Of a stretch of 64,000 nucleotides of DNA, positions 56,669-61,116 are shown piece after piece. Source of the stretch: an uncultured delta proteobacterium. GTDB taxonomy: Bacteria; Desulfobacterota; Desulfomonilia; UBA1062. The translations under genes and the position numbers were made by a program. The stretch's first letter is position 1. Each line of letters begins with the position of its first letter. The stretch spans positions 576,001-640,000 of the forward strand of contig CAWAUM010000001.1 of NCBI GenBank assembly GCA_963785235.1. Reading direction: 5' to 3'. A model generated the notes under the pieces. It saw nothing but the letters and a program-made list of their open reading frames with translations, ran no database searches and was not told the origin of the DNA.

Positions 56669-58649
56669 CTAATCCGTTTCTTGTATCTCCTGCCGGACTA
56701 TCCCGAGCTTATGCATCCTGGCCCTCAAGGTGCTCGGGTGGAGGCCCAGGATCGCTGCGGCCTTGTTCTTTCCCTCAATGCACCACTTGGTTTCAGAAAG
56801 GATTTTAAGAATCTGGTTTCGCTCCATTTCTTCCAATGTCCTCACGGTGGATGAAAGTGAGGAGGATGAAATCTCCAGCTTGTCTAGCAGCTGTAAAACC
56901 GGCCCGGGACTCATGATAACGGCACGTTCAATAATGTTTTCCAGCTCCCTTACGTTCCCTGGCCACGGATAATTCTGGAGCGCATTCATTGTCCCCTTCT
57001 GGATCGATGTGATCTGTTTGCCCAATTTTCTGGAATACCGCTCTATGAAAGAGTGGACCATGAGCGGGATGTCATCTTTGCGCTGCCGTAGGGGTGGGAC
57101 TGTGATGGGAAAGACATTGAGCCGGTAGTAGAGGTCTTGTCGAAACAGGCCTTTGTGGACCTCTTCCTCAAGGTCTCGATTGGTCGTTGCAATGATCCGC
57201 ACATCGACCTTGATGGTATGGGATGAGCCCAGGCGCTCAAACTCATTATGCTGAATCACCCGGAGGAGTTTTGGACTGCAACTCAAGGGGCAGCTCCCCG
57301 ATCTCGTCTAAGCAAAGGGAGGAACCATTGGCCACTTCGAACCGGCCTACCCGCCGGGCATCGGCCCCGGTAAATGCCCCCTTCTCCCGGCCGAACAATT
57401 CGCTCTCTATTAAATTGGCCGGCAGGGCGGCACAGTTGACCGTTATCAAGGGCCGTTCCTTGCGGGGACTCATGTTATGGATGGCGGCAGCTATCAGCTC
57501 TTTGCCCGTACCGGTCTCACCAAGGATGAGGACCGTTGTGTTCGCAGGGGCAACTTGTTCCGCCCGATAGAGGACATACTTGAGACCATCACTTTGCCCG
57601 ATTATATTGACGAATTGGCTTCTCAACTTGATCTCTTCGCGGAAGAAAATATTCTCGGCCTCGAGTTCGTCCTTCATTGTTTTGATTTCAGAAAGCGCTG
57701 TTTGAAGTTCTATTGTCCGCTCCTCCACGCGCTGTTCGAGCTCATCATGGGCTTTCTGCAGCGCATCCTCCATCTTCTTGCGCTTGGTGTTGTCCACCAT
57801 TACGACAACAATGCCCAAGACGCCTTTACGGGAGACCAGGGAGTTTGCACTTAACAGAAAGGAAAACAACTCGTTATCCTCAAGCGTAAAAGTAACATCA
57901 ACCCCATGGAGGGGCTTGTCACTCATTGCAGGAAGAAGGGCAAAGGGAGTCCCGTCGGGAAAGAAGAGGTGAAATGCCTCGTCAAATTCCTGGAAGATCG
58001 GACTTCTCCCTAAGAGGCTGTTGGTCGACTGGCTTGCACGGATGATACGGCCTTGGTGGTCGCAGAGTACAAATATTTCCGCAGCTTGATGGAGAATTTG
58101 AGTGGTGAGTTTTTCCTCTGCCAGGAGCTCTTCATTGCGCTTTTGCTCCGTCAGGTCGGTAACCACCATGCATAACGTATGGGGTATATCCATGTGTGCA
58201 AGGGCACTGATGGAAATCAATACAGGTGTAGAATCTTCACCTCCGGTCTGTAAGGCCAGTTCTGCTTTAGAGTTCCACTTCAAACTCTGCTTAACCATTG
58301 ATTCAAATAATTGAAGGTCTGTTGATGAAATGTATTGATAGATTGAGGATCCCATTACTTTTTCCAGAGACCCTTTGACGATATCTGCAAAACGTTGGTT
58401 ACAGAAAAGGATCGTGCCGTCAGAGGCCAGGGTGACGGCCCCTTCGTTCATGGTTTCGACCATGACCCTGTAAGGCTCATCGGCGCCCGACAGGGTGAAG
58501 ACCTGATCTCCTTCCTTTGTTGAGATAACCAGCCCGTCCACTTCACCGCTCAGGATGGCACGCAGGGTGTCCTCAGCTTCCATCATCCTTGATGTGAGTT
58601 CCTGCAACTCATCCAGAAGTTGCTGGCGGGTTTTATTTGATTTGTTCAT
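56669..58649 (-). CDS. PAS-domain sigma54 enhancer-binding protein (frameshift near 57270)
   Basis: PAS domains, [47 protein letters not shown]-terminal HTH; no receiver domain. Confidence 0.93.
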
Positions 58650-58659
58650 GTTTTCGCAC

Positions 58660-59004
58660 TCATGAATTCCTGGGTTTCAGATCGATGCCTACAAGAAACT
58701 TTTCCGTATCCGACATGTCGCCGATGAGCCTCCGCAGGGGCAGGGGGAGTTTCTTGATGAGCGTTGGGGCGGCAACAATCTGCTCTCCCTTGGCAAGATT
58801 GGGCTGCTGGTAGATGTCTATCACCTCGAGTTCGTAGCTCCCGGCCAGGTGTTTATCACAGAGTTTCTGGACATTGGCGATCGCCTGGGTCGACTTTGGG
58901 GTCATACCGGTAACATACAGCCGGAGAATGTACTTTGACGGGTCTCTCTTGGTTGCCGCTTTTTCGAATTCCGCAGTGCTCGTTTTCACTCTTTTCATAT
59001 CCAT
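58660..59004 (-). CDS. kaiB: KaiB family protein
   Basis: [42 protein letters not shown]. Confidence 0.93.
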
Positions 59005-59039
59005 CTCTGGTTCACCTTAAATTGATTCTTTATCATCCG

Positions 59040-59366
59040 TCAGACAGGACGAATGTCGAGTCCCACCAGCACACGTTCTGTGTTGGCCAGATCACCGATA
59101 ATCTTTTTAATCGGTTCAGGAAGCTTCCTCACCAGTGTCGGTATGGCAATAATCTGGTCCCCTTTAGCAAGCTGGGGGTTCTTTAAAAGGTCTATCACCT
59201 CAATGCGGTATTTCCCGGCGAGGTGCTCTTCGCAGATCTTCTTTAAATTAGCAAAGGCCGTTATGGATTTCTGGGTCTGACCGGCTACATATAACCGGAG
59301 GTTCCAGATTTCATCCGTAGCAGCGGTCTTTGATTTCTTCCCTTTTTCTGGTGAGACAGTTTTCAC
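59040..59366 (-). CDS. kaiB: KaiB family protein
   Basis: [43 protein letters not shown]. Confidence 0.94.
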
Positions 59367-59367
59367 C

Positions 59368-61116
59368 TTACTCTCCTTTCCCTCTTTTTTTTGAACGCGA
59401 CGCCTGGGGAGCTGAAGGTTTCCCCTTGCGAAGATGCGCCATTTCCAAGCGGTCTTTTGCCAGGACAGCCTGTCTTATCCTTTCTTCTTCGGCCATCAGA
59501 TGCACCTCTTGGGTTTCCACATCGAATTCGGCACGCAGCGCTGCTATCTTTGTATCAAGGGCTTTTCTCTTGCGCTCCTGCTCGCGGAGCCTGCGATCCG
59601 CCTCACGCCGGCTTGCCAGCTCAGAGGCCCTTTCTCCGGCTTCCTGGGCCGCCCGGGCACTGCCCGTTAATACCTCGCCGGAACCGGTATAGATGTCGAT
59701 GAGGTCAATTCCCTGGTTCGTGAGCAGGAACTCTTGAATCTGGTTGGAGTGGGCCATGCCGCGGGACTTCAGAATGTACAGGCCCCGGTTGCGTTCCCCG
59801 TTGAGCTCGATATCCCGCAGGAGAAGCCACGTATCGATCAGAGAAGATACCTCTTCGCTTGTGTGTTCAAGGCTGCCTCCAAAATGGGTGAGGTCCGTAA
59901 GGAAAGTGGAGATCTTTTTCATCTTCAAATGGTCGATCAGGCGCGTTAATATGGATTTGACCTCTGATGTTGTTCCCGCGGCGCTCAGGTTGCTGATGGG
60001 GTCTATAATGAAAACCTGGGGATTGAAATCATCGATCACCTTGTGGAAGGTGAGAAGATGCATCTCAAGGCCGTAAAGGGTAGGCCTTGTCGAATGAAAC
60101 TTGAGAAGCCCCTTCTTTACCCACCGGGAGAGATCCAGGCCGATGGAGCCCATGTTCCGGATGATCTGGCTGGGGGATTCCTCGAAGGCGCAATACAGGC
60201 ATCGCTCACCCCGCCTGCAGGCGGCTTCGGCAAAGGTGGCAGACAAACTTGATTTGCCTGTGCCCGCCGTACCTGAGACGAGGATGGTGGTGCCCCGGTA
60301 GAAACCCTTCCCATCGAGCATTGCATCCAGCTTGGGGACGCCTGTGGCGATGCGCTCTCTGGAAACGGGGTAGTCGAGTCCCAGCGAGGTGATGGGCAGG
60401 ATGGAGAAGCCGCTCTCGTCTATCAGGAAAGGATACTCGTCGGCGCCGTGAGATGAGCCGCGGTACTTGACAATACGCAGACGGCGGGTGGAAATTTGCT
60501 CCTCGATGCGGAAGTCCAGAAGGATAACGCAATCAGCCACGTATTCTTCGAGCCCGTAGCGCGTCAGCATCTTGTCGCCGCTTTCCCCCGTAACGATGGC
60601 CGTCACACCGCGGTCTTTCAGCCAGTGGAAAAGCCGGCGAAGCTCTGCCCGAATGATTGCGGCATTAGAAAGCCCGGAGAAAAGTGCTTCTATGGTATCC
60701 AGGACAACCCGCTTGGCCTTGATGGAATCAATGGCACTGCCCAGGCGGATGAACAATCCTTCCAGGTCGTACTCGCCCGTCTCCTCAATCTCGGATCGTT
60801 CGATGTAGACGTGGTCCATAGTAATGAGTCCCTGCGATATCATGTCATTGACATCAAAACCCAGCGAGATGAAATTCTTCGCAAGATCCTCGGGCGTCTC
60901 CTCGAAGGTCATGAAGACGCCTGGCTCTCCATAATCCATGGCGCCCCGCATGAGAAACTCCATGGCGAAAAGTGTTTTGCCGCAACCCGCACTGCCGCAG
61001 ATCAGGGTTGGCCTGCCTTTGGGAAGCCCTCCCTTGGTGATCTCATCGAGACCCTTGATGCCTGTCGGGCATTTTTCAAGAACCTCAACTGCATGTTTTA
61101 CCTTAACCATCTTCAT
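59368..61116 (-). CDS. kaiC: Double-domain KaiC with C-terminal coiled-coil tail
   Basis: Two P-loops ([16 protein letters not shown]), FEE pairs, KYRG/KSRG fingers, EVSSLIDTW phosphosite region, long charged tail. Confidence 0.96.

Follow-up and report, generated by a model that had tools for sequence, protein, structure and literature searches.

In cyanobacteria, the proteins SasA and CikA read the state of KaiC and KaiB and pass it to transcription through RpaA. Classical sigma-54 enhancer units (of the NtrC/glnAp2, DctD and XylR type) consist of an AAA+ activator with a GAFTGA motif and a Fis-type helix-turn-helix (HTH), upstream sites, and a -24/-12 promoter. Here we describe a locus that appears to join elements of both, with kaiC, two kaiB genes and the gene for a sigma-54 activator at positions 56669..61116 of a 64,000-nucleotide stretch of DNA from an uncultured delta proteobacterium (Desulfobacterota; Desulfomonilia; UBA1062; assembly GCA_963785235.1, contig CAWAUM010000001.1, positions 576,001 to 640,000 of the forward strand). 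This whole stretch is referred to as the window, and coordinates are given within it unless a contig is named. How KaiC and KaiB signal to the cell outside cyanobacteria is an open question, and published work stops at a PAS histidine kinase encoded in the operon. For the Rhodobacter (Cereibacter) sphaeroides KaiC-KaiB hourglass (8DBA, 8FWI, 8FWJ), the published report (Nature 2023, PMC10076222) describes a KaiC dodecamer held by coiled coils, a phosphosite pair named S413/S414, and fold-switched KaiB that binds CI depending on the ATP-to-ADP ratio. In Rhodopseudomonas palustris and R. sphaeroides, kaiC, kaiB and a gene for a PAS-domain signalling protein lie in one predicted operon (PLoS Genet 2016, PMC4794148). 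There are two published precedents for PAS domains that touch Kai proteins: the N-terminal PAS of Synechococcus elongatus KidA contacts fold-switched KaiB (PNAS 2022, PMC9478674), and the N-terminal PAS of a Pseudomonas histidine kinase is sufficient for KaiC binding (bioRxiv 10.1101/2022.01.26.477890). For magnetotactic Nitrospirota and Desulfobacterota, published accounts of Kai genes name neighbouring kinases only, and a full-text search of the literature outside subscription journals found no paper linking Kai proteins to sigma-54 or to enhancer-binding proteins.

The locus described here shares with the R. sphaeroides hourglass the KaiC tail, the Ser-Ser pair and the closest KaiB relatives, and no KaiA was found; the likeness is one of sequence only, and the locus differs in having two KaiB paralogues in fixed order instead of one and a sigma-54 activator as output. 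Relative to the purple-bacterial kaiC-kaiB-PAS operons, a one-component transcription activator with its DNA target alongside takes the place of the kinase. The SasA/CikA-RpaA pathway has two steps (a kinase or phosphatase, then a response regulator) and acts at sigma-70 promoters, whereas here there is one activator and sigma-54 promoters; the contact is made by a KaiB-like fold in SasA and a pseudo-receiver in CikA, where the present activator has a helix-hairpin-PAS module. With KidA and the Pseudomonas kinases we compare the role of the sensor, not the sequence of the PAS domain; their outputs are GGDEF/EAL or histidine kinase domains, unlike the activator, and KidA adjusts the clock and is not known to signal its state. 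The GAFTGA motif, the Fis-type HTH, the tandem inverted-repeat sites ~115 nt upstream of a -24/-12 promoter and the AT-rich stretch between them are all as in classical sigma-54 units. There are two departures from those units: the sensor is a Kai-linked module and not a receiver, GAF or V4R domain, and the enhancer-promoter unit occurs as a cassette in several copies and is found directly after the activator gene. We propose that kaiC, kaiB1, kaiB2 and the activator, together with its own DNA target, form a four-gene signalling unit that would carry the Kai state into envelope and stress transcription, and we give this whole reading a somewhat better than even chance. Within it, the timer probably switches the neighbouring stress and envelope genes directly.

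Organisation of the kai operon

The four genes lie head to tail on the minus strand in the order kaiC (59368..61116, 582 aa), kaiB1 (59040..59366, 108 aa), kaiB2 (58660..59004, 114 aa) and a PAS/AAA+/HTH sigma-54 activator gene, with gaps of 1, 35 and 10 nt. The activator is read in two frames, one of 467 aa (57246..58649) that ends at a stop caused by a frameshift, and one of 205 aa (56669..57286) that holds the end of the AAA+ domain, the AAA lid and the Fis-type HTH. A sigma-70-type promoter candidate for the operon (61143..61170, minus strand; TTGCCA, 16 nt, TG-extended TATAAT) is situated ~27 nt 5' of the kaiC start and agrees with the hexamers at 11 of 12 positions, as a consensus match only. 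A terminator scan inside the operon gave 7 sites (6.1 expected). The genome (3.9 Mb in 13 contigs, 93% complete) has one true kaiC, three kaiB and one rpoN; KaiA (PF07688) was not found anywhere in it, although a Synechococcus control genome did match.

KaiC matches PF06745 in two stretches (1.3e-110), corresponding to two KaiC/RecA-like halves, and Walker A and the catalytic Glu-Glu are readable in both ATPase halves. Its closest solved relative is R. sphaeroides KaiC (8DBA/8FWI, E 8e-196), aligned over residues 14-551 of 582 with the C-terminal extension included, and Ser424-Ser425 (EVSSLID) falls on the pair that is SS in 8DBA and EE in 8FWI. The protein is thus placed by alignment in the KaiA-independent Rhodobacter (KaiCRS) type with a predicted C-terminal coiled-coil tail, and by homology to KaiCRS it would autophosphorylate on the Ser-Ser pair and undergo KaiB-dependent dephosphorylation sensitive to ATP/ADP. 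In one relative (L032, G321:C25) kaiC is split into two frames.

Both KaiB proteins match PF07689 (6.9e-28 for KaiB1 and 2e-26 for KaiB2) and have the KaiB of 8FWJ as their best PDB relative (107 and 96 bits respectively). In a quick tree, 67 of 68 kaiC-proximal KaiBs, the group of KaiB1, fall in one conserved clade across phyla (SH-aLRT 100), and the distal, reader-proximal KaiBs, the group of KaiB2, lie outside it on longer branches and appear to evolve faster. Comparison by tblastn gives the same division, with 66 of 67 proximal KaiBs nearer KaiB1 and 68 of 69 distal KaiBs nearer KaiB2. The two thus look to be old paralogues kept in fixed order. Metagenomes repeatedly contain natural single-chain KaiB1-KaiB2 tandem fusions (200-250 aa; P0121-P0136), some of them in clusters with 3-4 members, and this recurrence suggests that the paralogues work as a pair or heterodimer. 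The number of copies varies in places: one relative (L038, G161:C95) has three kaiB between kaiC and the reader kinase. The third kaiB of the present genome is an orphan of the distal (KaiB2) type (C5:198996-199331; L031:4994-5332, minus strand), 71% identical to KaiB2, whose neighbours are unrelated (lysyl-PG synthase C-domain, HMG-CoA reductase, fn3), with no reader gene or cassette nearby.

In the activator, Pfam places PAS at residues 60-170 of the first frame, followed by profile positions 1-112 of Sigma54_activat (PF00158); positions 111-167, AAA_lid_14 and HTH_8 are in the second frame, so that the break in the profile coincides with the frame change. The translation shows both GAFTGA and the Walker A sequence GETGTGKE, and Pfam matched no receiver, HisKA or HATPase_c domain. 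The part of the first frame beyond the N-terminal module (57246..58109, minus strand) holds a second PAS-like region, where orthologues have PAS_9 at residues 192-293, and the first two thirds of the AAA+ domain, including Walker A and GAFTGA. An earlier note, made from the letters of the window alone, had described the order and spacing of the four genes, a window without kaiA, a KaiC of the KaiC2/Rhodobacter type with a Ser-Ser phosphosite and a long tail, and an activator with an intact GAFTGA and no receiver. All of these descriptions agree with the coordinates, the 8DBA/8FWI alignment, the translation and the Pfam results, and the lack of kaiA extends to the whole genome in the PF07688 search.

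A putative reader module linked to kaiB

The first 180 residues of the activator (58110..58649, minus strand) form the module of most concern here: a helix at 8-34, a hairpin at 39-52 with AIxxGEVDxLV, PAS at 59-165, and a further helix at 167-179. The predicted fold of the isolated module has the long helix, the hairpin at low confidence (pLDDT 54-63), and then a confident PAS. We define a reader as a protein with AIxxGEVDAxVV and then VFTLxGA..YR before the PAS core, encoded directly after kaiB, and the activator of the window is one of these. All four genes recur in G003, a genome of the same genus, where the activator is intact at 659 aa (KaiC 91%, the KaiBs 91% and 82%, and the two activator parts 61% and 83% identical). 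Other relatives have kaiC-kaiB-kaiB followed by PAS histidine kinases, whose first 170-300 residues are 33-41% identical to the activator N-terminus.

Two surveys show how closely the module keeps to kaiB. First, an even sample of 401 genomes of the phylum was searched with activator residues 1-180, and the matches fall into two classes. Thirty non-self matches start at or before residue 19 with the leading helix present (E <= 8.4e-27), and 20 generic PAS matches start at residue 31 or later (E >= 1.9e-13). A KaiC match lies just upstream on the same contig for 20 of the 30 leading-helix modules, and none of the 20 generic PAS matches shares a contig with a KaiC match; by tblastn of the loci, kaiB is directly upstream of 25 of the 30, a contig end truncates one more, and the other four lack kaiB. 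These four have lost the motif AIxxGEVDAxVV. Second, one genome per prokaryotic species was searched with the pattern AI[RL]xGEVD[AG]L, which gave more than 600 stretches and 507 confirmed relatives; the counts that follow rest on the best 79 loci, ranked by likeness to the window's module, and a locus is testable for kaiB with at least 800 nt upstream and for kaiC with at least 3 kb. Among these, kaiB is upstream in all 71 testable loci, with two kaiB in 67, and kaiC is present in 60 of 62, the exceptions being L098 and L120. One of the exceptions (L098, in a record titled Planctomycetia) lacks kaiC and retains one kaiB, the activator and a promoter with its upstream activating sequence (UAS). 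The loci span Syntrophaceae, Smithella, Desulfobacteraceae, Geobacteraceae, Planctomycetia, Acidobacteriota, Oscillochloris (Chloroflexota), the cyanobacterium Coleofasciculus, Nitrospirae, Methylobacter, and the methanogen-related archaea Methanoperedens and Methanosarcinales, and across phyla and archaea the linkage still holds at module identities of 42-50%.

In an alignment of 30 modules, conservation is highest ahead of the PAS core, in a segment with the pattern L..RL.EAEETLRAIR.GEVDALVV...G..VFTL.GA..YR. Two genomes (100% and 97% complete) keep kaiB, kaiB and a reader histidine kinase without a true KaiC, as judged by both a KaiC protein search and a Pfam family search, and because of these the module appears to track the KaiB pair and not KaiC. 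Among 32 longer KaiB2 relatives from a fusion search there are 8 KaiB-PAS fusions, and in 7 the reader motif comes right after a KaiB2-type domain; these lend weak support to the linkage, though they are single sequences, several have garbled C-termini, and they may be read-through artefacts. Direct contact between the PAS module and KaiB is plausible because of the KidA and Pseudomonas kinase precedents, and here would be by analogy with them.

Interchangeable outputs

The module is always N-terminal to a signalling output, and the type of output varies. By Pfam, HisKA, HisKA_2 and HisKA_3 kinases and hybrid kinases are the majority. A sigma-54 activator is the output in the window, G003, G321, G175 and G187, in the contig-cut G335 and G291, and in G032, where a hybrid kinase is encoded behind kaiB2 and the activator gene comes before kaiC. 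The range is completed by a LuxR/GerE regulator (G121) and a GAF-HD-GYP protein (G063). Classed by tblastn, the best 79 species-level loci comprise 31 activators, 31 kinases and 17 that are other or cut, a ranking that over-represents activators. A search of a large protein collection gives 1217 matches to the module at E <= 1e-15, from proteins 362-1154 aa long, and the best 120 clusters are nearly all 659-aa sigma-54 activators from uncultured Thermodesulfobacteriota with generic annotation only. Interchangeable outputs are expected of an input domain, and a role of this kind for the module is therefore suggested. The earlier note had pointed out that the N-terminal segment resembles that of kinases encoded after kaiCBB, and had proposed that it is a Kai-reading input module. 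The sequence comparison and both locus surveys bear out the resemblance, and linkage to kaiB (25 of 30 in the phylum, 71 of 71 testable at species level) and the swapping of outputs support the proposed role.

Enhancer-promoter cassettes and the predicted regulon

There are seven cassettes of ~160 nt in the window, all on the minus strand, each with a tandem site, a conserved AT-rich stretch and a sigma-54 promoter. The cassette UAS is CCTCAATATGTTGAGG, 2 nt, and CCACCAAATATTGAGG, with the promoter TGGCAGGCCATTTGCT ~115 nt further on. Cassette 7 is the nearest to the operon: its UAS (56610..56643, minus strand; CCTCAATATGTTGAGG, 2 nt, CCACCAAATAcgGAGG) begins 26 nt after the activator stop, and its promoter (56496..56511, minus strand) is TGGCAGGCCATTTGCT. 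The promoter pattern TGGCAG-N5-TTGCT has 9 matches in the window where 2.4 are expected, and none of 100 shuffles reaches 9.

This UAS is also present behind the activator gene in G003, G321, G175 and G187, as it is behind a Kai-less orthologue (G024) and both activator paralogues of the present genome. The HTH recognition stretch is identical among the orthologues and one residue different in the paralogues. Given this conservation and the position of the UAS after orthologues and paralogues alike, activator and UAS appear to travel together, and the UAS is likely to be the activator's binding site. The cassette regulon suggested in the earlier note is real and belongs to the activator subfamily, with the UAS found within 400 nt 3' of the stop in 17 of 28 testable species-level activator loci, other families included.

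The two paralogues are PAS-activators of 553 aa (C1:369.5-371.1 kb, L030; C2:133.7-135.3 kb, L029) without the Kai reader. Their search scores are identical, and the pair seems to stem from a recent duplication in which activator and cassette were copied as a unit. With them, the genome has three activators whose sensors differ but which probably act on one shared set of sites.

The first unit behind a cassette (54821..56416, minus strand) encodes a DUF3309 small membrane protein (56416..56264), a DUF4398 lipoprotein (56130..55765) and a DUF4398-OmpA protein (55768..54821). The six further cassettes (45081..54587, minus strand) have promoters at 45081, 46474, 47609, 49081, 52078 and 54440, followed in that order by genes for MlaE/MlaF; ABM and BON proteins; a sigma-70-family factor; a PilZ protein; unknown proteins, a PEP-CTERM and an SRPBCC protein; and a second sigma-70-family factor with a Sel1-repeat protein. 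Judged by their predicted products, the genes behind the cassettes form an envelope and stress set. The two sigma-70-family factors (46701-47486, 261 aa, and 53281-54144, 287 aa, both minus strand; regions 2 and 4) are each directly behind a sigma-54 cassette, and from this the regulon would start a sigma-factor cascade.

Proposed mechanism and alternatives

A simple scheme for the locus is as follows. KaiC would cycle, or relax with the energy state as KaiCRS does, and by homology its CI ring would bind fold-switched KaiB, depending on the phosphorylation of KaiC and on the ATP-to-ADP ratio. KaiB, probably as a KaiB1-KaiB2 pair, would offer a surface to the helix-hairpin-PAS module of the activator, which would read the Kai state most likely by contacting KaiB. 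Engagement of the reader would alter the assembly or ATPase activity of the sigma-54 AAA+ domain, itself presumably held by the HTH on the tandem UAS ~115 nt upstream of the seven TGGCAG-N5-TTGCT promoters. An energy- or time-dependent Kai state would in this way reach transcription in one protein step, acting on a regulon with DUF3309, OmpA, BON, Mla and PilZ proteins and two alternative sigma factors. The effect could be activation or sequestration, as both templated assembly of the hexamer on the KaiB ring and sequestration are possible.

A broader proposal is that KaiA-less Kai timers throughout bacteria and archaea use the module as a universal, portable adaptor for their output, with the KaiB1-KaiB2 pair, and not KaiC, as its direct ligand; we offer this tentatively and regard it as rather unlikely in that full form. 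A KaiB ring on KaiC CI would then gather up to six reader modules, templating or blocking the sigma-54 AAA+ hexamer. If the module is such an adaptor, promoter opening would here, for the first time, be driven by a protein timer or energy gauge without a phosphotransfer step, and the system could be rebuilt from four genes and one 160-nt DNA cassette.

Several observations weigh against the four-gene signalling unit as we propose it. The activator frame is broken in the only available sequence of this strain. The UAS as defined is absent from 11 of the 28 testable activator loci, and no UAS or cassette was found before kaiC. Because the HTH is nearly the same in three activators of this genome, the cassettes could be served by one other than the Kai-linked protein. 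The predicted fold of a natural KaiB-reader fusion (P0137) has a pTM of 0.49, a hairpin pLDDT of 53-59 and no confident packing of the domains, the C-terminal half of its KaiB part having a pLDDT below 50. Lastly, gene linkage gives no direction of signalling, and the reader could, like KidA, act back on the timer.

This last point leads to the alternative that survives best, which we nonetheless consider unlikely. The reader may act mainly upstream of the timer, binding and stabilising KaiB in the manner of KidA and so tuning KaiC, with the fused output under some other PAS-sensed signal. The KidA PAS domains bind fold-switched KaiB and shift the clock period without the output domains (PMC9478674), and the activator does have a second PAS domain which could receive such a signal. 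However, the module is invariably N-terminal to signalling outputs that change from one protein to the next, which fits an input domain, and the two readings are not exclusive.

The state of the activator gene raises another alternative, that it is a real pseudogene in this strain, with the Kai genes orphaned or signalling elsewhere and the two intact 553-aa paralogues, which have their own cassettes and a near-identical HTH, running the seven cassettes. The frame is broken in the assembly by a single extra A in CAG TCC AAAA CTC CTC, in the AAAA run at 57268..57271 (minus strand); eight orthologues are in frame at this site, with CAG GCC AAR CTN CTC. The quality of the assembly was checked by comparing 398 kb of G003 (RecA 95% identical) with this genome, taking the 120 orthologues that reach 250 aa, 60% identity and 80% coverage. 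Frame changes in this assembly affect 29 of the 120 (39 events over 52,508 codons, a rate of about one per 4 kb of coding sequence); they are not enriched at homopolymers, and identity after the breaks is as high as before. Of the 32 activator cores encoded in the genome two are split: this one and a second, whose break is at another codon and not in a homopolymer. In the activator itself, identity to the sister species G003 is 83% downstream of the break and 61% upstream, with no further lesion in 205 codons. The assembly therefore appears to be rich in indels, in a pattern that is not that of gene decay, and because so many genes are frameshifted in it and the eight orthologues read through, the extra A is probably an assembly error. 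No public sequencing run was found with more than 28% of this strain's sampled sequence words; in two public runs some contigs of relatives are one base short at 57269-57275, which is informative on the relatives only. The earlier note had held that a real frameshift near 57270 would mean an inactive activator, and the genome-wide indels and the intact orthologues now make an assembly artefact most likely. That the activator is truly broken in this strain seems to us quite improbable, and the pseudogene explanation as a whole, with the paralogues in charge of the cassettes, is only marginally less so. Frame-changed stretches occur elsewhere too (e.g. C5:291.5-312.7 kb and C1:475-513 kb), and any broken-gene call in this genome needs read-level confirmation.

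A further alternative does without physical coupling: the PAS module would respond to a small molecule or to redox state, and the genes would be together only as one mobile unit. There are clear signs of mobility. KaiC is 86-93% identical to the KaiC of six other families whose RecA is 65-69% identical, and only 58% identical to the KaiC of a same-family genome whose RecA is 83% identical; because KaiC identity is out of step with RecA identity, the kai block appears to have moved horizontally within the phylum. In addition, a fold search with the module returns generic ligand-binding PAS domains only (PpsR, DosP, LOV and FixL). However, the linkage across phyla and archaea, at 42-50% module identity and with different outputs, is far beyond one transfer event, and the most conserved part of the module is the helix-hairpin before the PAS core and not the ligand pocket, with the Kai-less relatives having lost the motif. 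We therefore see only a slim chance that coupling is absent. Finally, programmed +1 recoding at the break, giving a truncated and a full-length activator, is suggested by the A run and by the second activator split within its AAA+ core but is rejected as scarcely credible, since eight orthologues are in frame, the second split is at another codon with no homopolymer, and frame changes are genome-wide without homopolymer enrichment.

The four-gene signalling unit thus remains our preferred reading. Its whole path would be readable from the sequence, from the timer to the reader module, the sigma-54 activator, its own enhancer and promoter, and stress and envelope genes that include two sigma factors. 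The four genes and a reporter in a sigma-54 host would make a compact test system, and the GEVDA hairpin is the motif to mutate. The reader module and the two-KaiB arrangement appear to be old and widespread, reaching archaea, and results obtained here would bear on Kai signalling generally, including in anaerobes that never see light. The window itself contributes the frameshift as a probable matter of assembly, the seven-fold cassette array directly below the operon, and the three activators sharing one HTH; the comparisons add the two-clade structure of the KaiBs, the KaiC-less kaiB-kaiB-reader loci, and a motif test that separates linked from unlinked modules.

Other features of the cassette region

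Just above cassette 4 there is a 48-aa open reading frame (49256-49402, minus strand) that is a diverged copy (52% identity) of the activator C-terminal HTH. A DNA repeat (D6, 49262-49396 versus 56678-56812) covers the same region, with the cassette apparently copied along with the 3' end of the activator gene. The Sel1-repeat gene (52269-53303, minus strand) contains six tandem 108-nt repeats (52320-53159), which encode seven Sel1 units and do not form a regulatory array. The stretch from 44000 to 52000, in which five of the seven cassettes lie, has a G+C content of 43-47%, compared with about 50-59% elsewhere in the window, and may be an acquired island.

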